From a virus: a stretch of DNA of 39,875 bases. Shown here piece after piece: positions 499-37,138 of this stretch. A model generated the notes under the pieces. The model was given only the letters and a program-made list of their open reading frames with translations, made no database searches and was not told where the DNA came from. The stretch is taken from the UHGV virus genome UHGV-0200725; one strand, written 5' to 3'. Every line of letters begins with the position of its first letter. The first letter of the stretch is position 1. The translations under genes were made by a program, and so were the position numbers.

Positions 499-1692
499 TC
501 ACTCTACCTTTTCATCAAGCCAGTCCGCCCACCATTGCATCATTTCTCTGCGCTTATCGAGATACTGAGCATGGTTGTAAATTCCACGTACAGATCCGCC
601 GTTGGCATGTGCCAGTTGCACTTCAATGGCGTCGGCAGGCCATTCGTGCTCGTTCATAATCGTGCTGAATTCATGCCTGAATCCGTGACCGCTTTCCAGA
701 CCTTCATAGCCGATTTGTTTGATCACAAGTAGCACCGCGTTCTCGCAGATTGGCTTCTTCTTATCGTTGCGCCCGGAAAAAACAAACTCTGATACTGGTT
801 TAGTGATTGAGCTTAGTGTAGTGAGAAGTTCAACCACCTGGTCTGACATCGGGACAACATGAATTTTGCGTCCCTTCATCACACTGGCGTCGATGGTGAT
901 AATCCTGTTTTCAAAATCGACGTTCTTCCATAGCATGGAACGAAGCTCTTTTGTTCTTAGGGCTGTGTAGCGTAAAACTTTGGTCGCAATGAGCGATACG
1001 ATACTTCCTGAAAATGTTGCAAGTGCTTTGTTGAATGCCGGGATCTGGTCGGCAGGTAAAAATGGGAAGTTCTTCTTGCGGTATCCCTTCATGGCGTCAG
1101 CAAGGTCAGGTGCCGGGTTATATTTAGCCCTACCAGTGACAATAGCGTAACGGAAAACCTCGCCGCATCTTCTGCGGGCTTTGTTGGCTCGCTCCATTGC
1201 ACCGCGATCTTCAAATCTACGGATTACTTCCAGCAGTTGCATCGGCTCAATATCCTGAATTTCAAGGCCGCCGATGATAGGTAAAATGTCGTCATCAAAC
1301 ATTTTTGCAAGTTCAGTCGCATACCCTACTGACCAGACTTGCTTCTTGTGCTCGTACCATTCCTTGTAAATCGCACTAAAGGAATTGTTGTTAGACGAAG
1401 CCTTTTTCGCTTTTACCGGATCGATGCCAACCGAGATGTCTTTCCTCGCGGTCCATGCTTTATCTCTTGCCTCCTGCAAAGTCATAAGCGGATATTTTCC
1501 GACGGTCAGGATTTTCTCCTTACCGTCAATCTTGTAGCGAAGCTGCCATACCTTTTTCCCGGATACAGGAACATAAAGGTACAGGCCATTACCATCGAGA
1601 AGGCGGTATGGTTTTTCTTTCGGCTTTGCTGCTTCAATCTGCTTAACGGTGAGCATGGGTAAAAATCCGGTGGGTAAAATTATTTTATCCAC
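499..1692 (-). CDS. int: Tyrosine site-specific integrase (P4/CP4-57-like family)
   Basis: 397-aa ORF; N-terminal arm-binding-like region (KQIEAAKPKEKPYRLLDGNGLYLYV) and C-terminal catalytic region with conserved R...H..R..Y spacing (HGFRHEF...RGIYNHAQY); track start at 1692 is GTG, Met13 at 1656 is an alternative start. Confidence 0.9.
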   Translation of the reverse strand: MDKIILPTGFLPMLTVKQIEAAKPKEKPYRLLDGNGLYLYVPVSGKKVWQLRYKIDGKEKILTVGKYPLMTLQEARDKAWTARKDISVGIDPVKAKKASSNNNSFSAIYKEWYEHKKQVWSVGYATELAKMFDDDILPIIGGLEIQDIEPMQLLEVIRRFEDRGAMERANKARRRCGEVFRYAIVTGRAKYNPAPDLADAMKGYRKKNFPFLPADQIPAFNKALATFSGSIVSLIATKVLRYTALRTKELRSMLWKNVDFENRIITIDASVMKGRKIHVVPMSDQVVELLTTLSSITKPVSEFVFSGRNDKKKPICENAVLLVIKQIGYEGLESGHGFRHEFSTIMNEHEWPADAIEVQLAHANGGSVRGIYNHAQYLDKRREMMQWWADWLDEKVE

Positions 1693-9669: not shown

Positions 9670-10320
9670 TTATGGAAGGTTTGCTAGTTTTGCATCGACA
9701 ACTACGCCGATGATTTTGCAGTTTCCGTTGATCTCGATCATCGGATATTGTGGGTTAAGTGGTTTTAGAAACTTCCTGCCTGCATCAATAACTAACTTCT
9801 TGAAAGTTGCCTCGTTTTCTCCTTCGAGCTTTGCAACTACCAGTTTCCCGTTACGCGGCTCTACTTCAGGATCGACGAGTATTATCATTCCTTCAGGGAT
9901 ACTGAGACCGGCCGGAGCCGTCATTGAGTCTCCCTTCACGTCCAACCAAAACGAATCTTCTGAACAGTCTACGGTTGTATCGTACCAGTTATCTATTGCA
10001 CGCTTATGATATGGTTCTACAGCTTCCATCCAGCATCCTGCGCTCACCCAGCTAATCAGAGGGAATGACCCTCTTGGATCATGCCTACTGTGATAGGCAA
10101 TGTTTGAAAGACTTTCCTCTCCTTTCATCAGATAGTCAGGGGAACACTTCAACGCATTAGCCAGGGCGAGAAGATTCTCTCCATTTGGCTCTGTCTCAGA
10201 GCGTTCCCACTGAGATATGGCAACATTAGACACGCCGACCATCTTTCCAAGTGCGGCCTGCCTGATCTTGAGTTCTTTTCTCCGAGCGCGAATGCGCTCT
10301 CCCATCAATTGAGTTTTCAT
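9670..10320 (-). CDS. c2: CI-type repressor (P22 C2-like), HTH plus S24 LexA-like autocleavage domain
   Basis: 216-aa ORF; N-terminal HTH (QAALGKMVGVSNVAISQWERSE), C-terminal Ser/Lys autoprotease region (GDSMTAPAGLSIPEGMIILVD...KLVVAKL); matches P22 C2 as recalled. Confidence 0.9.
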   Translation of the reverse strand: MKTQLMGERIRARRKELKIRQAALGKMVGVSNVAISQWERSETEPNGENLLALANALKCSPDYLMKGEESLSNIAYHSRHDPRGSFPLISWVSAGCWMEAVEPYHKRAIDNWYDTTVDCSEDSFWLDVKGDSMTAPAGLSIPEGMIILVDPEVEPRNGKLVVAKLEGENEATFKKLVIDAGRKFLKPLNPQYPMIEINGNCKIIGVVVDAKLANLP

Positions 10321-14213: not shown

Positions 14214-14570
14214 ATGGACGAATCAAGAAAGCAGTTTGAGGAATACGTTGCCAAAAAATTGAGATTACCATTCGAGATGATAACCGAGGCAAGAAATGGT
14301 GATAGGTACTTTGCATTTTCAAGCATGGATATTCGTCACTCCTTAAATGAGTGGTGGGCTTTATGGCAGGCATCGCGAGCAGCTATTGAACTGGATATCG
14401 ACTGGCCAGAATCGAATGACGACTTTTGGAAAGATGGTGAAGAAGGTGCTTATGCGATGGGTTATGAGGATGGGAGAGACAAAACGGTAATTGCAGTAAT
14501 GAAAGCTATCAGAGCCGCTGGAATTAAAGAGAAGAATTTCGATGAAGCAAACAATCTTCCTCCGAACTAA
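14214..14570 (+). CDS. Hypothetical protein (118 aa)
   Basis: ORF preceded by GGGGA; C-terminus VIAVMKAIRAAGI shares a motif with the Ea22-like protein. Confidence 0.6.
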   Translation: MDESRKQFEEYVAKKLRLPFEMITEARNGDRYFAFSSMDIRHSLNEWWALWQASRAAIELDIDWPESNDDFWKDGEEGAYAMGYEDGRDKTVIAVMKAIRAAGIKEKNFDEANNLPPN

Positions 14571-14952
14571 GCAACAACAGCAAGCTGCAATAAATGCCAT
14601 CCTCGCAACACCACTCGATAAAGACAAGCCAGTCACCATCCGCATTACTGACTACAAGCGCAACCTTGACCAGAACGCAAAATTTCACGCGATGGTCGCA
14701 GATATCGCTAGGCAAGTTCAGTGGCGCGATAAATGGTTAAAACCAGAACAATGGAAGGTTTTGTTGATCAGCGGTCATGCAGTGGCAACAAAGCAGGAAG
14801 CTGATGTTTTGCCCGGCCTTGAAGGTGAATACGTCAACATTCGCGAAAGCAGCGCGCAGATGAGCGTGAAGCGCATGGCAAGTCTGATCGAGTACACAAC
14901 AGCCTGGGCTATTGGTCAGGGTGTCAGATTTACCGACAGGAGGTACGAATGA
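14542..14952 (+). CDS. ninB: NinB (Orf-family recombination mediator)
   Basis: 136-aa ORF; motifs [22 protein letters not shown] match lambda NinB as recalled. Confidence 0.8.
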
Positions 14953-15131
14953 GACGACAGCGACGAAGTTTCACCGACATCATCTGCGAAAACTGCAAAT
15001 ACCTTCCAACGAAACGCTCCAGAAATAAACGCAAGCCAATCCCAAAAGAATCTGACGTAAAAACCTTCAACTACACGGCTCACCTGTGGGATATCCGGTG
15101 GCTTAGAGAACGTGCGAGGAAAACAAGGTGA
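14949..15131 (+). CDS. ninE: NinE-like protein
   Basis: 60-aa basic [63 protein letters not shown] in the lambda ninE position. Confidence 0.6.
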
Positions 15132-15298
15132 TTGACCAAAATCGAAGTTACGAACAAGGAAGTGTCGAGCGAGCTTTAACGTGCGCTAACTGCGGTCAGA
15201 AGCTGCATGTGCTGGAAGTTCACGTGTGCTCCGATTGCTGCGCAGAACTGATGAGCGATCCGAATAGCTCAATGTACGAGGAAGAAGGCGATGAATGA
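15128..15298 (+). CDS. ninF: NinF-like protein (56 aa, GTG start), not in the supplied track
   Basis: GTG 15128 overlaps ninE stop; translation ...[45 protein letters not shown] matches lambda NinF as recalled; stop overlaps next ATG. Confidence 0.55.
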
Positions 15299-16013
15299 GT
15301 TAATAAATGGCAATGCCATCAAAATGACAAGCATTGAAATCGCTGAGTTGGTGGGTAAGCGTCATGACAATGTGAAACGTACCATCGAAACGCTGGCTAA
15401 AAATGGTGTTATCCGGCTTCCTCAAATTGAGGATTGTGGAAGAATCAATGGGTTAGGCTTAAATCAAAGTTTTTGTGTGTATGTATTCGAAGGCGAACAA
15501 GGAAAGCGAGACAGTATTGTCGTTGTAGCCCAGTTGTCGCCGGAATTCACCGCTCGTCTTGTTGACCGTTGGCGAGAGCTTGAAGAAACTGCGGTTAATA
15601 TCCCCAAAACGCTACCAGAAGCGTTGCGCCTTGCTGCTGATCTTGCTGAGCAGAAAATGCAACTGGAAAACCAGCTCGCAATTGCCGCACCTAAAGTTGA
15701 GTTTGCCGATCGAGTTGGCGAAGCCAGCGGAATTTTGATTGGAAACTTTGCAAAGGTTGTCGGTATTGGTCCAAACAAACTGTTTGCGTGGATGCGCGAT
15801 CACAAAATCCTTATTGCTTCAGGTTCCCGGCGCAATGTGCCAATGCAGGAATATATGGATCGCGGCTATTTCACAGTGAAAGAAACAGCGGTCAACACAA
15901 ATCACGGAATACAGATATCGTTCACCACAAAAATCACCGGGCGTGGTCAACAGTGGCTGACCAGAAAGCTGCTCGATAACGGAATGCTGAAAGTAACAGG
16001 GGAGGCTGCTTAA
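15291..16013 (+). CDS. Phage regulatory protein, Rha-type N-terminus with KilAC-type antirepressor C-terminal domain
   Basis: 240-aa ORF; N-terminal [30 protein letters not shown] is Rha/ORF6N-like; inserted between ninF and ybcO-like. Confidence 0.7.
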   Translation: MNELINGNAIKMTSIEIAELVGKRHDNVKRTIETLAKNGVIRLPQIEDCGRINGLGLNQSFCVYVFEGEQGKRDSIVVVAQLSPEFTARLVDRWRELEETAVNIPKTLPEALRLAADLAEQKMQLENQLAIAAPKVEFADRVGEASGILIGNFAKVVGIGPNKLFAWMRDHKILIASGSRRNVPMQEYMDRGYFTVKETAVNTNHGIQISFTTKITGRGQQWLTRKLLDNGMLKVTGEAA

Positions 16014-16303
16014 TGGCTAATCTACGCAAAGAAGCGCGCGGCAGAGAATGCCAGGTACGTATTTACGGCGTATGCAATGGCAATCCTGAAACTACAGTTC
16101 TGGCACATTACCGGATGGCTGGAATTTGCGGAACGGGGATGAAGCCTGACGACCTGATCGGCGCATGGGCTTGTAGCGCGTGTCACGATGAAATCGACCG
16201 ACGCACCCATAATCTCGACAACAAAGACGCCAGACTTTACCACCTCGAAGGCGTGATCAGGACGCAGGCGATACTGCTGAAGGAGGGAAAGATTAAGCCA
16301 TGA
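16013..16303 (+). CDS. YbcO-like (DUF1364) putative nuclease
   Basis: 96-aa Cys/His-rich ORF (CQVRIYGVCNG...CSACHDEIDRR) upstream of rusA, as in lambdoid nin regions. Confidence 0.55.
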   Translation: MANLRKEARGRECQVRIYGVCNGNPETTVLAHYRMAGICGTGMKPDDLIGAWACSACHDEIDRRTHNLDNKDARLYHLEGVIRTQAILLKEGKIKP

Positions 16304-16662
16304 ACGAATATCAGTTTGTGCTTCCTTACCCGCCGTCGGTGAATACCTACTGGCGAAGACGGGGAAGCCAATACTACATCAGCGATAAAGGCCAGAAATA
16401 CCGAAAAGACGTTCAGCAAATCATCCGCCAACTTAAGTTAGACATTTTCACCAAATCACGACTCCGCATCAAAGTCATCGCAGACGTTCCAGACTCCCGC
16501 CGCCGCGACCTCGACAACATCCTGAAAGGTTTACTCGACTCCCTTATCCACGCCGGATTTGCGGAAGACGACGAGCAATTCGATGACATTCGCGTAATTC
16601 GTGGTGTGAAAGTACCAGGCGGAAGGCTTGGAATAAAAATCACCGAACTGGAGAACGTATGA
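16300..16662 (+). CDS. rusA: RusA Holliday-junction resolvase
   Basis: 120-aa ORF with RusA-type motifs (PPSVNTYWRRRG...DLDNILKGLLDSL). Confidence 0.85.
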   Translation: MNEYQFVLPYPPSVNTYWRRRGSQYYISDKGQKYRKDVQQIIRQLKLDIFTKSRLRIKVIADVPDSRRRDLDNILKGLLDSLIHAGFAEDDEQFDDIRVIRGVKVPGGRLGIKITELENV

Positions 16663-16847
16663 ACGCCACAATTCAAACGATACCAGAGCTTCTTATCCAG
16701 ACACGAGGCAATCAGACCGAAGTGGCGAGGATGCTTTCCTGCGCAAGAGGAACAGTGCTCAAGTACAACCGAGACAGCAAAGGCGAGCGTCACGTAATAG
16801 TTAACGGCGTCCTGATGGTCAAACAGGGCAAGAGGGGTAGACCATGA
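16659..16847 (+). CDS. ninH: NinH-like DNA-binding protein
   Basis: 62-aa ORF; GNQTEVARMLSCARGTVLKY matches lambda NinH HTH region as recalled. Confidence 0.7.
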   Translation: MNATIQTIPELLIQTRGNQTEVARMLSCARGTVLKYNRDSKGERHVIVNGVLMVKQGKRGRP

Positions 16848-17467
16848 GACTCGAAAGTGTAGCTAAATTTCATTCGCCAAAAAGCCCGATGATGAGCGAC
16901 TCACCACGGGCTACGGCTTCTGACTCTCTTTCCGGTACTGATGTGATGGCTGCTATGGGGATGGCGCAATCACAAGCCGGATTCGGAATGGCTGCATTCT
17001 GCGGTAAGCATGAACTCAGCCAGAACGACAAACAAAAGGCTATCAACTATCTGATGCAATTTGCACACAAGGTATCGGGGAAATACCGTGGTGTGGCAAA
17101 GCTCGAAGGAAATACTAAGGCAAAGGTACTGCAAGTGCTCGCAACATTCGCTTATGCGGATTATTGCCGTAGTGCCGCGACGCCGGGCGCAAGATGCAGA
17201 GATTGCCACGGTACAGGCCGTGCGGTTGATATAGCCAAAACAGAACTGTGGGGGAGAGTTGTTGAGAAAGAATGCGGAAGATGCAAAGGTGTCGGCTATT
17301 CAAGAATGCCAGCAAGCGCCGCATATCGCGCTGTAACGATGCTAATCCCAAACCTTACCCAACCCACCTGGTCACGCACTGTTAAGCCGCTGTATGACGC
17401 TCTGGTGGTGCAATGCCACAAGGAAGAGTCAATCGCAGACAACATTTTGAATGCGGTCACACGTTAG
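16844..17467 (+). CDS. Q: Late-gene antiterminator Q (lambda-type)
   Basis: 207-aa ORF with zinc-binding Cys cluster (CRDCHGTGR...CGRCKGVGY); followed by a pR'/qut/tR' region that I recall as lambda-like. Confidence 0.9.
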   Translation: MRLESVAKFHSPKSPMMSDSPRATASDSLSGTDVMAAMGMAQSQAGFGMAAFCGKHELSQNDKQKAINYLMQFAHKVSGKYRGVAKLEGNTKAKVLQVLATFAYADYCRSAATPGARCRDCHGTGRAVDIAKTELWGRVVEKECGRCKGVGYSRMPASAAYRAVTMLIPNLTQPTWSRTVKPLYDALVVQCHKEESIADNILNAVTR

Positions 17468-17509
17468 CAGCATAATTGCCACGGATGGCAACATATTAAC
17501 GGCATGATA

Positions 17510-17560
17510 TTGACTTTTTGAATAAAGTTGGGTAAATTTGACCCAACGATGGGGTAATTC
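17510..17560 (+). promoter_or_regulatory. Late promoter pR' with qut site
   Basis: -35 TTGACT (17510-17515), 17-nt spacer, -10 TAAATT (17533-17538). Confidence 0.7.
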
Positions 17561-17737
17561 GCTCGTTGTGGTAGTGAGATAAAAAGAGGCGGCGCTTACT
17601 ACCGATTCCGCCTAGTTGGTCACTTCGACGCATCGTCTGGAACTCCAACCATCGCAGGCTGAGAGGTCTGTAAAATGCAATCCCGAAACAGTTCGCAGGT
17701 AATAGTTAGAGCCTGCATAACGGTTTCGGGATTTTTT
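17545..17737 (+). ncRNA. Short terminated late leader transcript (6S-like RNA) from pR' to tR'
   Basis: Promoter at 17510-17538 and terminator at 17679-17737 define a transcript of about 190 nt, as known for lambda. Confidence 0.5.
17679..17737 (+). terminator. tR' rho-independent terminator
   Basis: Long hairpin AATCCCGAAAC...GTTTCGGGATT followed by TTTTTT. Confidence 0.75.
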
Positions 17738-18250
17738 ATATCTGTGTAACAGGTAAGAGCATTCTCCCTTATGGGGCTTGGCTTAAATGCACCGAGTGCT
17801 CTTACCGTTGTGATGAATGCACAGGCTGATGTGCCGCAACTACAGTAGTGCGCGCTTTGCGGGGCTTGCTACAACCCTGAGTCGGAGTTCAGCACCGACC
17901 ATCACAACGCAACGTTAAGAGTATTTGGCTAATTAAGCGAATGCCGGAAGCAGAACCGGATCACCAAATGCGTACAGGCGTCATCGCCGACCAGCAACAG
18001 CACAACCCAAACTGAGCCGTAGCCACTGGCTATCCTGGATTCATCAGTGATAGTTATGCTGCGGCCTTCTACACATGATCTTCGTGAAAGCGGGTGACAG
18101 GAGGTCGCGCTAACAACCTCCTGCCGTTTTGCCCGTGCATATCGGTCACGAACAAATCTGATTACTAAACACAGTAGCCTGGATTTGTTCTATCAGAAAT
18201 CGACCTTATTCCTAATTAAATAGAGCAAATCCCCTTATTGGGGGTAAGAC

Positions 18251-18574
18251 ATGAAGATGCCAGAAAAACATGACCTGTTAGCCGCTATTCTCGCGGCAAA
18301 GGAACAAGGCATCGGGGCAATCCTTGCGTTTGCAATGGCGTACCTTCGCGGCAGATATAATGGCGGTGCGTTTACAAAAACAGTAATCGACGCAACGATG
18401 TGCGCCATTATCGCCTGGTTCATTCGTGACCTTCTCGACTTCGCCGGACTAAGTAGCAATCTCGCTTATATAACGAGCGTGTTCATCGGCTACATCGGTA
18501 CTGACTCGATTGGTTCGCTTATCAAACGCTTCGCTGCTAAAAAAGCCGGAGTAGAAGATGGTGGAAATCAATAA
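18251..18574 (+). CDS. S: Class I holin (lambda S-type) with dual-start motif
   Basis: 107-aa ORF starting MKM, three transmembrane segments, charged C-terminus; matches lambda S as recalled. Confidence 0.9.
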
Positions 18575-19034
18575 TCAACGTAAGGCGTTCCTCGATATGC
18601 TGGCGTGGTCAGAGGGAACTGATAACGGACGGCAGAAAACCAGAAATCATGGTTATGACGTCATTGTTGGCGGAGAGCTATTCACTGATTACTCCGATCA
18701 CCCTCGCAAACTTGTCACGCTAAACCCCAAACTCAAATCAACAGCAGCCGGACGTTACCAGCTTCTTTCCCGTTGGTGGGATGCCTACCGTAAGCAGCTT
18801 GGACTGAAAGATTTCTCTCCGAAAAGTCAGGACGCTGTGGCATTGCAGCAGATTAAGGAGCGTGGCGCTTTACCGATGATTGATCGCGGTGATATTCGTC
18901 AGGCTATCGACCGTTGCAGCAATATCTGGGCTTCACTGCCGGGTGCTGGTTATGGTCAGTTCGAGCATAAGGCTGACAGCCTGATTGCAAAATTCAAAGA
19001 AGCAGGCGGAACGGTCAGAGAGATTGAGGTATGA
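18558..19034 (+). CDS. R: Endolysin (lambda R-type lytic transglycosylase)
   Basis: 158-aa ORF overlapping holin 3' end; catalytic region [11 protein letters not shown]. Confidence 0.9.
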
Positions 19035-19468
19035 GCAGAGTAGCCGCGATTATCTCCGCTCTGGTTATCTGCATCATCGTTTGCCTGTCATGGGCGGTCA
19101 ATCATTACCGTGATAATGCAATCGCCTACAAAGAGCAGCGCGATAAGGCCGCATCCACAATTGCTGACATGCAGAAGCGTCAACGTGATGTAGCAGTACT
19201 TGACGCCAGATACACAAAGGAGCTTGCTGATGCTAACGCGACTATCGAAAGCCTCCGTGCTGATGTTTCTGCTGGGCGTAAGCGCCTGCAAGTCGCCGCC
19301 ACCTGTGCAAAGTCAACGACCGGAGCCAGCAGCATGGGCGATGGAGAAAGCCCAAGACTTACAGCAGATGCTGAACTCAATTATTACCGTCTCCGAAGTG
19401 GAATCGACAGGATAACCGCGCAGGTTAACTACCTGCAGGAGTACATCAGGACGCAATGCCTTCGATGA
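19031..19468 (+). CDS. Rz: Rz i-spanin
   Basis: 145-aa ORF with N-terminal TM anchor and coiled-coil periplasmic domain. Confidence 0.85.
19230..19415 (+). CDS. Rz1: Rz1 o-spanin lipoprotein embedded in Rz in the +1 frame
   Basis: ATG 19230 preceded by AAAGGAG; signal peptide with lipobox LGVSAC and proline-rich mature region. Confidence 0.7.
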
Positions 19469-19642
19469 TAGCGATAATTTTACTCATCATCCTTCACATC
19501 TGGCTCTGTAGGCAGGGTGGTGATCACTTCTGGAGTAAATCCAGATTAAACATCTCATTGCTGATGCTTGATATTGAGCATCTGGCGCGCAGTAAGGGGC
19601 TGCGTTGAGATAAGAGCCAGTTCATTACAAATACCAGGATTT

Positions 19643-19668
19643 AGCCTCGCATTCGCGGGGCTTTTTAT
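19643..19668 (+). terminator. Probable rho-independent terminator downstream of the lysis cassette
   Basis: AGCCTCGC-ATTC-GCGGGGCT (one mismatch) followed by TTTTATAT. Confidence 0.45.
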
Positions 19669-19810
19669 ATCTGAATTTCACAGCGCATCTCACGCGCATA
19701 TTAACGAGAGCCTTTCAGTAAGCGAGCCTGAGAAATGCCGTTATAGGTGGCGACCTCTCTCGGGCGGCTTTTCTGTGAGACAGGTTCACTTTCTAAAAGG
19801 TAAAGACGCT

Positions 19811-20329
19811 ATGAATCATCAATTGGCTAATCTCGATTTCCGGGACATGGTGGTTGTTTCTGGTGATCGCGTGATCACAACCTCCCGCAAGGTAGCAGCT
19901 TACTTCGACAAGCAGCATCACCACATCATTCAGAAAATCGAAAAGCTAGACTGTTCGGATGAATTTCTAACCAGCAACTTTTCGCGGGTTACCTATGAAC
20001 ACAAGGGTAATCAGTATGTTGAATATGAAATTTCCAAAGACGGTGCGATGTACATCATCATGTCGTTTACCGGCAAAAAAGCTGCCGCCATCAAAGAGGC
20101 GTTTATCAAAGCATTTAATTGGATGCGTGACAGGCTGATGGAGATGGCTCACTCATACCAAAGAGAGCACAACGAGTTAATGCTGGAGTTCATGAAGGAA
20201 AAGGATGTTGCCAGTATGTCAGGACGCTTGCTGAACCGCTGGGGCAGGATCAAAAAACCGCAACTCATAGCAAGAATCAAAAGGCTTGAGCAGCAGGCGC
20301 AAATATCGATCCCCGGACTGCCAAAGTGA
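19811..20329 (+). CDS. rha: Rha-family phage regulatory protein
   Basis: 172 aa from ATG 19811; N-terminal MNHQLANLDFRDMVVVSGDRVITTSRKVAAYFDKQHHHIIQKIEKL typical of Rha proteins; track ORF from 19568 is an over-extension. Confidence 0.75.
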   Translation: MNHQLANLDFRDMVVVSGDRVITTSRKVAAYFDKQHHHIIQKIEKLDCSDEFLTSNFSRVTYEHKGNQYVEYEISKDGAMYIIMSFTGKKAAAIKEAFIKAFNWMRDRLMEMAHSYQREHNELMLEFMKEKDVASMSGRLLNRWGRIKKPQLIARIKRLEQQAQISIPGLPK

Positions 20330-20681
20330 CCATTCCAAAGCCCATCTACGGGTGGGCTTGATAATGAAACCGTGATTTACATCCCCACAATCCGGGTATG
20401 TAAAAGATAGTTCAGGCGAGAACAGATTTAACTAAATCTGTGCACCACCAGTTGCGGCAGTACAGCGAAACAACACAAGCCAGTAAGTGGGGAAATAACA
20501 CTGGCAGCCACTGAAAGATGAACCTCCTGCCTTATGGCAAAAAAGATTCTTTGTGGTGGCGGACTGATGGAAAGACATCGGTTATTGCAGAGGCCATTCA
20601 ATGAATGGTCTCGACAATGGCTTATACCCTACACGGGATAACTTAACTGATATCCCTTTTAACGGATAAACGGAGCCAACA

Positions 20682-20924
20682 ATGGCAGAGATTATTCCCA
20701 TGACTGAAGAACAGAAATTCCAGTTAGAGATTTACAAACTGGTCATGAACCAGAACGCAGCCGCAGAGGAAGCATTTCAGTTCATTGGCACTGACGAGCT
20801 GAAGCTTGAGCTATTCAAAATTCACTTCCAGTCAGGCGGCGCTAATTCGGATATCACGATCCGCACATTTGAAGCGGTGCGTAAATCGAAGGAAGCGTTA
20901 GACCTGTTCACTACCGGAGCATAA
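20682..20924 (+). CDS. Hypothetical protein (80 aa)
   Basis: ORF preceded by ACGGAG; precedes the packaging module. Confidence 0.6.
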   Translation: MAEIIPMTEEQKFQLEIYKLVMNQNAAAEEAFQFIGTDELKLELFKIHFQSGGANSDITIRTFEAVRKSKEALDLFTTGA

Positions 20925-34947: not shown

Positions 34948-35337
34948 TTAACATTTTCTTTTTACTTTTCCAACAAAAGCTTTGGTTGAATCCATATTCC
35001 CATAACCAGAAATGGTTTTCGACATTAAAACTGTTCCATTAGGATGTATTACCCATGAGTCGATAACTCGTTGAGTTTCGCCATTCGCGCCGATTCCAAT
35101 GATGGAGTTTTTAGACAATGCTTTGTAAGCCATGCCGCCCGCATCCGTCCCAGAATATGTGATACTGGCATCTTCACCGTTTGTCTTAATGATGAATGTT
35201 CCACTAAAACCATCTTCTTCCGGTTGAAAATTATTTCGTTCTGAATAGCTTATTCCGTGCATATCTCCAACGACCCAGCACTCTGCTGAGACAGAAAACG
35301 AGAAGACAAGGAAAGCCATTGCTATAATCAATTTCAT
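34948..35337 (-). CDS. Secreted hypothetical protein (129 aa) with signal peptide, distal gene of the mnt operon
   Basis: N-terminal MKLIIAMAFLVFSFSVSA then ECWVV; Cys near both ends of the mature protein; beta-rich; convergent with gene 16 (24-nt gap). Confidence 0.65.
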   Translation of the reverse strand: MKLIIAMAFLVFSFSVSAECWVVGDMHGISYSERNNFQPEEDGFSGTFIIKTNGEDASITYSGTDAGGMAYKALSKNSIIGIGANGETQRVIDSWVIHPNGTVLMSKTISGYGNMDSTKAFVGKVKRKC

Positions 35338-35352
35338 TTTAAGCCCTTATTG

Positions 35353-35688
35353 TTATTGATTCTTTTTGCACGGAAATGTTTTTCCTACTGCTAGGGCGGT
35401 TAGTATAACTGCACTCTCATTTCTTGATTCTGGGTTTTTGTTTAGATATTTCTCAACGATATCGGTGTATTGATACATGTCAACGCCATCAGGAGGACAT
35501 AGAGAACCAATTAGTATCAATGAGTCAGTTACTCCGCGCAAATATCCAGTAATGTAAAGCGATGAAAAATCATCACCCTTTTTACCTTGTTGAATGTTGT
35601 AAAGAAGGTCATTACCCGTTTGAAGCTCGCGCAGCTCAGCACTGGAAGAAGAGACAACTGCTAACAAGAACAGTGATAGAAATCTCAT
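35353..35688 (-). CDS. Secreted hypothetical protein (111 aa) with signal peptide, translationally coupled to mnt
   Basis: ATG 35688-35686 overlaps the mnt TGA; N-terminal MRFLSLFLLAVVSSSSA; two Cys in mature protein; helical character. Confidence 0.65.
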   Translation of the reverse strand: MRFLSLFLLAVVSSSSAELRELQTGNDLLYNIQQGKKGDDFSSLYITGYLRGVTDSLILIGSLCPPDGVDMYQYTDIVEKYLNKNPESRNESAVILTALAVGKTFPCKKNQ

Positions 35689-35939
35689 TTCAAATCCTTT
35701 TCATAAATCTTTTTAAGTGTCTCAAACACTATAGCCTTGAACTGCTCAGCCTGCTGATCAGCCAAGCGTTCAGCTTCGTCGCGATATCCTGTAATCGGTG
35801 ATGGTTTTGATAGTGCATCCTGAACGATTTGTAATAACTCAGAGTTCATTGACCTTCCGTTAGCCTCGGCTCTTAATTTCAATTTTTCTCTTACTTCCAA
35901 AGGCATACGGAAGTTAAAGTGCGGATCATCTCTAGCCAT
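35685..35939 (-). CDS. mnt: Mnt repressor (ribbon-helix-helix)
   Basis: 84-aa ORF MARDDPHFNFRMPLEVREKLKLRAEANGRSMNSELLQIVQDAL... matching P22 Mnt as recalled; divergent from arc across an operator region. Confidence 0.85.
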   Translation of the reverse strand: MARDDPHFNFRMPLEVREKLKLRAEANGRSMNSELLQIVQDALSKPSPITGYRDEAERLADQQAEQFKAIVFETLKKIYEKDLK

Positions 35940-35961
35940 GCCATCACTCCAAGTTAGTGTA

Positions 35962-36013
35962 TTGACATGATAGAAGCACTCTACTATATTCTCAATAGGT
36001 CCACTGTGGACCT
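35962..36013. promoter_or_regulatory. Pant promoter with Arc operator and Mnt operator
   Basis: -35 TTGACA (35962-35967), -10 TATATT (35985-35990); Arc operator ATGATAGAAGCACTCTACTAT (35967-35987); palindrome AGGTCCACTGTGGACCT (35997-36013). Confidence 0.75.
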
Positions 36014-36029
36014 ATATTGTGAGGTGAAC

Positions 36030-36191
36030 ATGAAAGGAATGAGCAAAATGCCACAGTTCAATTTGCGGTGGCCTAAAGAAGTATTGGATTTGGTACGCAA
36101 GGTGGCGGAAGAAAATGGTCGGTCTGTTAATTCTGAGATTTATCAGCGAGTAATGGAAAGCTTTAAGAAGGAAGGGCGCATTGGTGCGTAA
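36030..36191 (+). CDS. arc: Arc repressor (ribbon-helix-helix)
   Basis: 53 aa from ATG 36030: MKGMSKMPQFNLRWPKEVLDLVRKVAEENGRSVNSEIYQRVMESFKKEGRIGA, matching P22 Arc as recalled. Confidence 0.85.
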   Translation: MKGMSKMPQFNLRWPKEVLDLVRKVAEENGRSVNSEIYQRVMESFKKEGRIGA

Positions 36192-36259
36192 AGTTGAAGC
36201 CCCAACTGCTGTAACAGTCAGGGCTTCGGCATCAACAAATCGGATTAGGAAATATTGAC

Positions 36260-37138
36260 ATGAAAAGTATAGCAAAGGCACAAAACGATTTCACCATCTT
36301 CAAATTCGGCGACAGTGAAATCCGCGTCATCAACAAGTGCGGTGAGCTGTGGTTTGTAGCTAAAGATGTTTGTGATGCTTTAGATTTGACTAACTCACGC
36401 AAGGCGCTTACTGCACTTGATGACGATGAAAAGGGAGTAACTTTAAGTTACACCCTTGGTGGTGAGCAGAATCTAAGCATTGTGAGCGAATCAGGTATGT
36501 ATACATTGGTTCTGCGCTGCCGCGATGCAGTCAATAAAGGTTCAGTCCCGCACAAATTCCGCAAGTGGGTAACAGCAGAAGTTCTGCCTTCAATTCGCAA
36601 ACATGGCGAGTATGTAAAAGGAAAGAAAACCACTGTTGAGGAAAGAACACCGCTACGCGATGCAGTAAACATGCTGGTAGGAAAGAAAGGACTTCGCTAT
36701 GACGATGCATACAATATGGTTCATCAGCGTTTTGGTATTGACAACATTGATGAACTTTCAATTGAACAAATCCCGCTGGCCGTAGAGTACATCCACAGGG
36801 TAGTGCTTGAAGGCGAGTTTATCGGCAAACAAGAGAAGAAAACCAACGAGCTTTCTGAAAAAGAAGCAAACAGCCTTGTATGGCTATGGGATTATGCCAA
36901 CCGCTCACAAGCATTATTCCGCGAACTGTATCCGGCGCTGAAACAAATTCAATCGAACTATTCCGGCAGATGTCATGACTGCGGTTATGAGTTCTCCCGT
37001 ATTATCGATATAGCGAGAGACGTTTTAATCAATCACTCACGAGATGTTGATATCAATGAGCCAGACGGACCAACGAATCTTTCCGCATGGATGAGACTTA
37101 AGAATAAAGAATTACCTCCTTCAGTACATAACTACTGA
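36260..37138 (+). CDS. ant: Antirepressor (Ant-like, Bro-N/KilA-N type N-terminal domain)
   Basis: 292-aa ORF downstream of arc; N-terminal region typical of phage antirepressor domains. Confidence 0.7.

Follow-up and report, generated by a model that had tools for sequence, protein, structure and literature searches.

Two regulatory genes of lambdoid phages, roi and rha, have long been known, and the only characterised relatives of either tie them to the dependence of lytic growth on the integration host factor (IHF). Both are known only as regulators of the DNA-binding type that stop lytic growth when the host is deficient in IHF. In particular, Roi is said, in an abstract by Clerget and Boccard, to bind a site within its own gene that adjoins an IHF site, with IHF stabilising the binding. 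Moreover, in the absence of IHF the Rha proteins of phages P22 and phi80 are reported to harm lytic growth, and a block of growth by Rha in IHF mutants is known for these two phages only (PMC4936722, citing Henthorn & Friedman 1995). The context of roi is reported to be preserved in Shiga toxin (Stx) phages (PMC3430580), and roi has also been annotated in HK97, HK620, H-19B/Stx phages and Gally. The DNA analysed here is a stretch of 39,875 nucleotides (UHGV virus genome UHGV-0200725; 39.9 kb, hereafter the window), which is a complete P22/HK620-like (Lederbergvirus) Escherichia coli prophage and carries one gene of each kind (Table 1). The two are read as roi and as one allele of rha, each in its canonical place, that is, as IHF-linked DNA-binding regulators of an ordinary prophage and not as inactivators of its C2 repressor, with a probability of about 0.72. 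Their identity was assigned because of their domains, their identity to Roi of HK022, HK620 and Gally and to Rha of P22, and the same gene order and slot. The combination of the two genes is already known, being annotated in the published phages Gally and JEP4.

Two domains were found in Roi above the Pfam cut-offs. The C-terminal half matched ANT/KilAC (PF03374) with an E-value of 8.1e-33 (113 bits), and the N-terminal part matched the whole of the Phage_pRha profile with an E-value of 6.4e-08 and, by a small margin, 33.5 bits against a cut-off of 29.9. The protein was assigned to phrog_63, 'anti-repressor Ant', in PHROGs (6.5e-96), while the NCBIfam model TIGR02681 (phage_pRha) matched Rha only, not Roi. 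When positions 14500-20700 were compared by megablast with phage genomes, 562 records were retrieved, the best matches being the Escherichia phages Gally (90% coverage, 96.9% identity), E212, Kapi1, HZ41 and HK620. In HK022, HK620 and Gally, the gene at this position bears the annotation roi or 'DNA-binding protein Roi'. The HK022 protein, 241 residues long compared with 240 here, is 88% identical over 240/241 residues (E-value of 1e-157), and those of HK620 and Gally are 95% identical. Furthermore, ninF-roi-ybcO-rusA-ninH-Q, in which start and stop codons overlap, is the standard order of these three phages. In the window, roi overlaps the ninF stop by 8 nucleotides, its own stop shares one nucleotide with the ybcO start, and its ATG is preceded by the Shine-Dalgarno-like run GAGGAAGAAGG. 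The view taken in an earlier note on this DNA, that the gene interrupts the nin order, was therefore not borne out. The other observations of that note on the two genes held: both open reading frames (ORFs) lie exactly where it had placed them, the domain searches came out in favour of Rha/antirepressor-like families for both (the Rha and KilAC domains of the first gene and the Rha domain of the second, the Rha match being marginal for the first), Pfam agreed with the neighbours it had named around roi (NinB, NinE, NinF, YbcO, RusA, NinH and Q), and rha follows the lysis cassette.

For Rha, the matches were stronger than for the N-terminal part of Roi, with 1e-23 and 84.1 bits for Phage_pRha against the same cut-off, 8.1e-24 and 84 bits for ORF11CD3, and 76 bits for TIGR02681 (cut-off of 45.95); in PHROGs the protein was assigned to phrog_518, 'Rha-like transcriptional regulator' (1e-79). 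The Rha protein of P22 (orf201, gp69) has the same Phage_pRha and ORF11CD3 architecture and is 45% identical overall and about 80% identical over the C-terminal 60 residues. In the late operon its gene occupies the same slot, flanked by gene 15/Rz on one side and by orf80 (DUF2560)/gene 3 on the other, and in the window rha is likewise followed by genes for DUF2560, a gp3-type small terminase and a large terminase. The rha ATG (19811) sits within a longer ORF starting with TTG (19568-20329, 253 amino acids). This longer reading was rejected, as it passes through a terminator-like hairpin and as the homology to P22 Rha and to other Rha alleles begins at the ATG. P22 Rha is annotated with 201 amino acids compared with 172 here, with the annotated P22 start 23 codons ahead of the corresponding ATG. 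From the hairpin (19643-19672) to the start codon of rha, no consensus sigma-70 promoter was called. A leader of about 150 nucleotides 5' of rha was also observed to be common to different rha alleles in two other loci (L020 and L030).

The relationship between the N-terminal parts of the two proteins was weaker. A BLASTP comparison gave 17% identity with a non-significant E-value of 0.32, while an hhalign comparison of the two families aligned Roi residues 7-55 with Rha residues 18-65 (E-value of 1.7e-4, probability of 49%). The label 'Rha-type', as far as these comparisons go, is solid for Rha and marginal but acceptable for Roi.

Table 1. Position, strand and basis of the features of the window discussed in the text.
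Feature	Position	Strand	Basis or remark
roi; Roi-type DNA-binding regulator, 240 amino acids, divergent Rha-type N-terminal and KilAC (ANT) C-terminal domain	15291-16013	+	Pfam, PHROGs, identity, position
roi segment for the Rha-type N-terminal domain (residues 12-99)	15324-15587	+	Pfam 33.5 bits; hhalign E-value 1.7e-4
roi segment for the KilAC/ANT domain (residues 126-228), almost invariant among alleles	15666-15974	+	PF03374; invariant alignment columns
Perfect 7-1-7 palindrome TCCTCAA-A-TTGAGGA, 10 bp upstream of the IHF core	15419-15433	+	putative; candidate Roi operator
Exact IHF core consensus within roi (AATCAATGGGTTA, matching WATCAANNNNTTR)	15443-15455	+	
rha; Rha-family regulator, 172 amino acids, Phage_pRha (residues 23-106) and ORF11CD3 (residues 115-168)	19811-20329	+	Pfam, NCBIfam, PHROGs, slot
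Intrinsic-terminator-like hairpin and T run between Rz and rha	19643-19662 (hairpin), T run to 19672	+	8-bp stem, 6 GC pairs, then TTTTTATATCT
ninF, upstream neighbour, overlapping the roi start	15128-15298	+	Pfam NinF
ybcO, rusA, ninH and Q antiterminator; rest of the nin/Q operon 3' of roi	16013-17467	+	Pfam YbcO, RusA, Phage_NinH, Antiterm
Lysis cassette (holin, endolysin, Rz with embedded Rz1), ahead of rha in the late operon	18251-19468	+	ORFs; matching genes annotated in Gally, HK620 and P22
Integrase	499-1692	-	
C2 repressor, S24-type	9670-10320	-	
immI	35685-37138		Pfam Arc with Repressor_Mnt (Mnt), Arc (Arc), Bro-N and P22_AR_C (Ant); Rfam sar RF00262, 65.6 bits
mnt (immI)	35685-35939	-	
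arc (immI)	36030-36191	+	
sar antisense RNA (immI)	36192-36258	-	
ant (immI)	36260-37138	+	

Within an otherwise nearly invariant roi, residues 22-65 approximately (15354-15485) were hypervariable. Among 120 homologues, each at least 83% identical overall, at least seven allele classes of this segment were distinguished, and the class found here (…EDCGRINGLGLNQSFCVYV) is distinct from those of HK620/Gally, of HK022 and of the Stx phages. Gally Roi carries the HK620-type segment. The KilAC half of HK022 Roi is essentially identical to that of Roi here, and its variable segment belongs to another class (here ...LPQIEDCGRINGLGLNQSFCVYV, in HK022 ...PPALQHTNIINDLGVITGKRDFYV). This pattern suggests a diversifying exchange of DNA-binding specificity. 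In the Stx1a-converting phage Stx1_8100 (L085), codon 45 of roi was found to be an in-frame TAA in place of CAA, so that this copy is probably inactivated; together with the published IS629 insertions in roi of Stx2a phages, it suggests that roi is dispensable.

The variable part of roi also contains an exact IHF core. Exact matches to WATCAANNNNTTR numbered two in the window, about what is expected by chance, and one of them falls within roi. The motif occurred once in each of four reference loci, which add up to 29.9 kb: Gally, HK620 and HK022 have it in roi, at one and the same offset, and P22 has it in rha. Beyond the window, the core was placed at 2801-2813 (L001), 2404-2416 (L002), 1295-1307 (L003) and 2692-2704 (L004). 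The roi gene of Stx1a_2598 has the exact core at this offset too, making four allele classes of roi that carry it at the same codons, and the 933W-type allele has one mismatch. All the specified positions of the core are invariant in roi of this prophage, Gally, HK620 and HK022, where variation was found only at three of the four N positions. Moreover, P22 rha and the roi gene of an Stx phage share 21 identical nucleotides at the core, CGAAAAAATCAATAACTTAGG, which encode EKINNLG with identical codons, in contrast to less than 20% identity between the two protein domains. Other rha alleles carry an IHF-like site with zero or one mismatch at the same position. Rha of this prophage has neither the EKINNLG segment nor the exact core that P22 rha has there, and its gene holds, at 20009-20021, an IHF-like site with one mismatch that is read in another frame, AATCAGTATGTTG.

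Among the genes of the window, the particular codons that form the IHF core would be chosen together for I-N-x-L with a frequency of about 0.02. As an argument for a constraint at the DNA level this is only suggestive, because the roi alleles are not independent. Furthermore, (K/R)IN(N/G/D)LG is also kept as protein in five of the seven Roi allele classes, for which reason constraints on DNA and on protein are not cleanly separable at the core. Conservation of (K/R)INxLG in the protein, together with shared ancestry of the alleles, could be the source of much of the pattern. With respect to the palindrome upstream of the core, HK022 roi has a different one, CTGCA-T-TGCAG, in the same alignment columns. 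The palindrome of the window stays a mere candidate for the Roi operator, because 13 palindromes with 7-bp arms occur in the whole stretch and because the sequence also encodes conserved protein. The core and the palindrome together fit an intragenic Roi/IHF module, which is offered as a lead rather than a finding. It would go further to propose that the DNA coding for the 'wing' of the Rha-type domain also serves in cis as an IHF site, and this is regarded as rather unlikely. If the IHF site were functional, roi and rha would constitute self-contained IHF-sensing autoregulatory cassettes, with the regulator, its operator and the IHF site in one ORF; a phage with both genes would then check the level of host IHF, and hence the growth phase, at the delayed-early and at the late lytic stage.

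The two genes belong to different transcription units. By its coding overlaps, roi is tied to ninF and ybcO in the delayed-early nin operon, and rha comes after the lysis genes in the late operon, with the promoter pR' at 17510-17538. In Gally, a prophage of the AIEC strain E. coli LF82 and the nearest relative that has been studied, the transcripts of both roi and rha were at background in RNA sequencing data of the lysogen (log2 of about 3.3-4, like silent neighbours), compared with a log2 of 8-11 for the CI repressor of the co-resident prophage Tritos. On this basis, roi would be translationally coupled and transcribed from pR after antitermination, and rha, sitting in an accessory slot of the Q-dependent late operon, would probably depend for its expression on read-through of the upstream hairpin by Q-modified RNA polymerase.

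As a separate observation, a C1/cII-type box (TTGCGAGCACTTGC, 17131-17144, minus strand) is present within Q and is identical to the annotated C1 site of P22 that activates the antisense a23 promoter. It is compatible with the antisense transcripts from Q towards roi that were reported for Gally in macrophages. A second box of the form TTGCN6TTGC in rha (20260-20273, minus strand), present in Gally and absent at the homologous place of P22 rha, was set aside as probably due to chance, with eight matches in the window against 3.3 expected.

The analysis shows the identity of the two genes, their domains, synteny and transcription units, the IHF consensus and the prevalence; we infer the DNA-binding targets of the two proteins, the IHF dependence of this phage and the timing of expression. 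By orthology with HK022 Roi, Roi here would be a sequence-specific DNA-binding protein with a divergent Rha-type winged-helix N-terminus and a KilAC C-terminus, and its targets would include a site in its own gene adjoining an IHF site. Roi and Rha would fall into two classical sets of lambdoid functions that turn inhibitory to the phage's own lytic growth in a host lacking IHF. The mechanism would likely consist of DNA binding by the Rha-type domain, normally restrained or organised by IHF, rather than of inactivation of C2.

The earlier note had gone further, proposing up to three antirepressor-like functions in the prophage, with layered control of induction or cross-talk with co-resident prophages. 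Its immI-type ant is real and is accompanied by mnt, arc and the sar RNA. For Roi and Rha, the label 'antirepressor' comes from family names only, and neither shares a domain with the immI Ant: Ant combines Bro-N with P22_AR_C, Roi combines pRha with KilAC and Rha combines pRha with ORF11CD3. No P22_AR or Bro-N domain was found by Pfam in Roi or Rha, and P22_AR_C together with control by mnt, arc and sar was found at ant alone. Judged by domain content, only the immI Ant of this prophage belongs to a family of demonstrated antirepressors. That Roi and/or Rha are nonetheless true antirepressors, acting on their own C2 or on the repressors of co-resident prophages and adding layers of induction beside Ant, is considered improbable. 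It draws on the 'anti-repressor' labels given by PHROGs and by the Prokaryotic Genome Annotation Pipeline (PGAP), on the association of KilAC with the known antirepressors Ant1 and Ant2 of P1/P7 (PMC9043618), and on the existence of trans-acting antirepressors that coordinate several prophages (PMC3121763). However, the latter, from Gifsy/Fels prophages, are described as small proteins, and the terms Rha, KilA and Roi did not turn up in a text search of PMC3121763; Gifsy-type antirepressors were accordingly rejected as relatives of Roi and Rha. Moreover, HK022 Roi has been characterised as a DNA-binding protein. By the operon positions of roi and rha, both would be made only after the loss of C2, in agreement with their background RNA levels in the Gally lysogen, and, because C2 has a LexA-like S24 self-cleavage domain, induction by the SOS response needs no antirepressor. 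Layered control of induction is thus a poor fit to these data; an antirepression in three layers is unsupported, as is cross-talk with other prophages late in infection.

The KilAC domain has also been linked to a different activity. In AriS of Listeria phages, SOS inhibition needs no more than the ANT/KilAC domain, the N-terminal domain being the one that regulates phage genes, and proteins with the pRha-KilAC architecture of Roi occur among the AriS-like proteins (PMC9043618). Accordingly, Roi might be a regulator with a dual function, its variable N-terminal domain acting on phage genes and its KilAC domain dampening the host SOS response (RecA) and tuning prophage induction. The nearly invariant KilAC domain next to a hypervariable N-terminal part agrees with such a role, as does the identity of 35-43% between the C-terminal half of Roi and 'antirepressor' genes of Listeria, Staphylococcus and Streptococcus phages. 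Nevertheless, inhibition of SOS was demonstrated for Listeria proteins only and by overexpression, AriS at native levels showing none (PMC9043618), and the phenotype known so far for Roi concerns IHF and not SOS. This role appears as improbable as antirepression. A main function of roi and/or rha in competition with other lambdoid phages, with IHF-dependent self-toxicity as a side effect, seems slightly less probable still. Searches with the PADLOC defence models returned no match for Roi, Rha or six neighbouring ORFs of unknown function, and genes that are not expressed in the Gally lysogen would not protect a lysogen before induction.

Several points weigh against the preferred reading of the two proteins as IHF-linked DNA-binding regulators. 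The Rha-domain call for Roi is marginal both by its Pfam score and by its hhalign probability, and a winged-helix fold has no structural support in either protein: the AlphaFold2 model of Roi (alignment of 36 sequences) had a mean predicted local distance difference test score (pLDDT) of 36 and that of Rha (single sequence) one of 41, both unusable. Sequence searches of the PDB returned zero matches for Roi and chance matches only for Rha (E-value of about 0.8). In addition, Roi here differs from HK022 Roi mainly in the variable segment, so that its binding specificity may differ, and Rha here is only 45% identical to P22 Rha, lacks EKINNLG and has an IHF-like site with one mismatch only. Besides Listeria AriS and the DNA-binding Roi, proteins with a KilAC domain include KilA of P1 and the P1 antirepressor Ant; as the demonstrated activities of KilAC proteins are quite different, the domain does not by itself assign one role to the C-terminal half. 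Finally, the activities of these two alleles are taken from relatives.

The roi and rha genes are widespread. At least 80% of the stretch from roi to rha was present in 64 of 5,426 complete E. coli genomes, where the usual PGAP names are 'phage antirepressor KilAC domain-containing protein' for roi and 'Rha family transcriptional regulator' for rha. A scan of IMG/VR yielded 557 relatives of roi, and among the best 80 loci about 30 carried the Roi allele class of this prophage (98-100% identity). Furthermore, the slot behind Rz (19468-20682) was compared across loci L005-L084, of which 58 were roi-bearing with enough downstream sequence. Between Rz and DUF2560, a Rha-type gene was found in 22 of these 58 loci (12 with the allele found here and 10 with other Rha alleles, 40-90% identical), a KilA-N-type gene, as hkbK of HK620, in nine, and other genes or nothing in the remaining 27. 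Therefore, rha occupies a variable accessory slot, and the co-occurrence of roi and rha is common.

The rest of the prophage is ordinary for its group. From left to right, its genes are int, recT, c2, c1, O, a DnaB-type P gene, nin, Q and lysis, followed by packaging, head and injection genes, immI and a tailspike gene with a P22-type head-binding domain; c1 stands for a CII/C1 homologue, O for an O-like gene and P for a DnaB-type helicase gene. A small ORF for a hydrophobic product of 50 amino acids (19456-19608, plus strand) overlaps the end of Rz and, by position only, is the counterpart of GALLYPH_52 of Gally, the RNA of which clearly exceeded that of adjacent genes in some samples of LF82 (log2 of up to 7.4 compared with about 3.5). 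Two small genes at 34948-35688 (minus strand), between the injection genes and mnt, encode products with hydrophobic, signal-peptide-like N-termini; one is a member of Rap1a, a family of type VI secretion immunity proteins (PF18602, 9.7e-15), and the other, of 129 amino acids, is without a family match. These two genes are likely morons. In the Gally paper, the rightmost prophage genes are reported to be strongly induced in macrophages (PMC9928086).

As it was first put, the finding matters little, since it re-identifies two named and widespread accessory regulators of lambdoid phages. A useful correction is that the label 'antirepressor KilAC domain protein' does not amount to evidence of antirepression. 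Moreover, the biochemical roles of the Rha N-terminal, KilAC and ORF11CD3 domains in enterobacterial phages are poorly defined, and the conserved intragenic IHF core offers a cheap handle by which they can be tested.

Among the described systems, P22 has the same set of mnt, arc, sar RNA and ant in its immI region, upstream of the tailspike gene. P22 Ant itself carries a P22_AR_N domain where Ant here has Bro-N, so that Ant of this prophage would be a domain-swapped variant. AriS of Listeria phage phi10403S (AntA/B and ANT/KilAC) resembles Roi in joining a conserved C-terminal KilAC domain to an exchangeable N-terminal regulatory domain, which among AriS-like proteins may be AntA/B, Bro-N or pRha, variants with pRha-KilAC included (PMC9043618). 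The relationship is distant, as AriS belongs to Firmicute phages and the identity of about 35-40% to Roi is confined to the KilAC domain. HK022, on the other hand, shares with this prophage the exact IHF core at the same offset of roi but a different class of the variable segment. The closest agreement is found with Gally, which has both roi and the same rha allele in the same places (Rha 99% identical and annotated as 'Rha transcriptional regulator'), which differs by an extra ORF between ninE and ninF, and for which mnt, c2, c1, roi and rha are listed as the five transcriptional regulators of the phage (PMC9928086), and with JEP4, the 'Rha protein' of which is 100% identical to Rha of this prophage.

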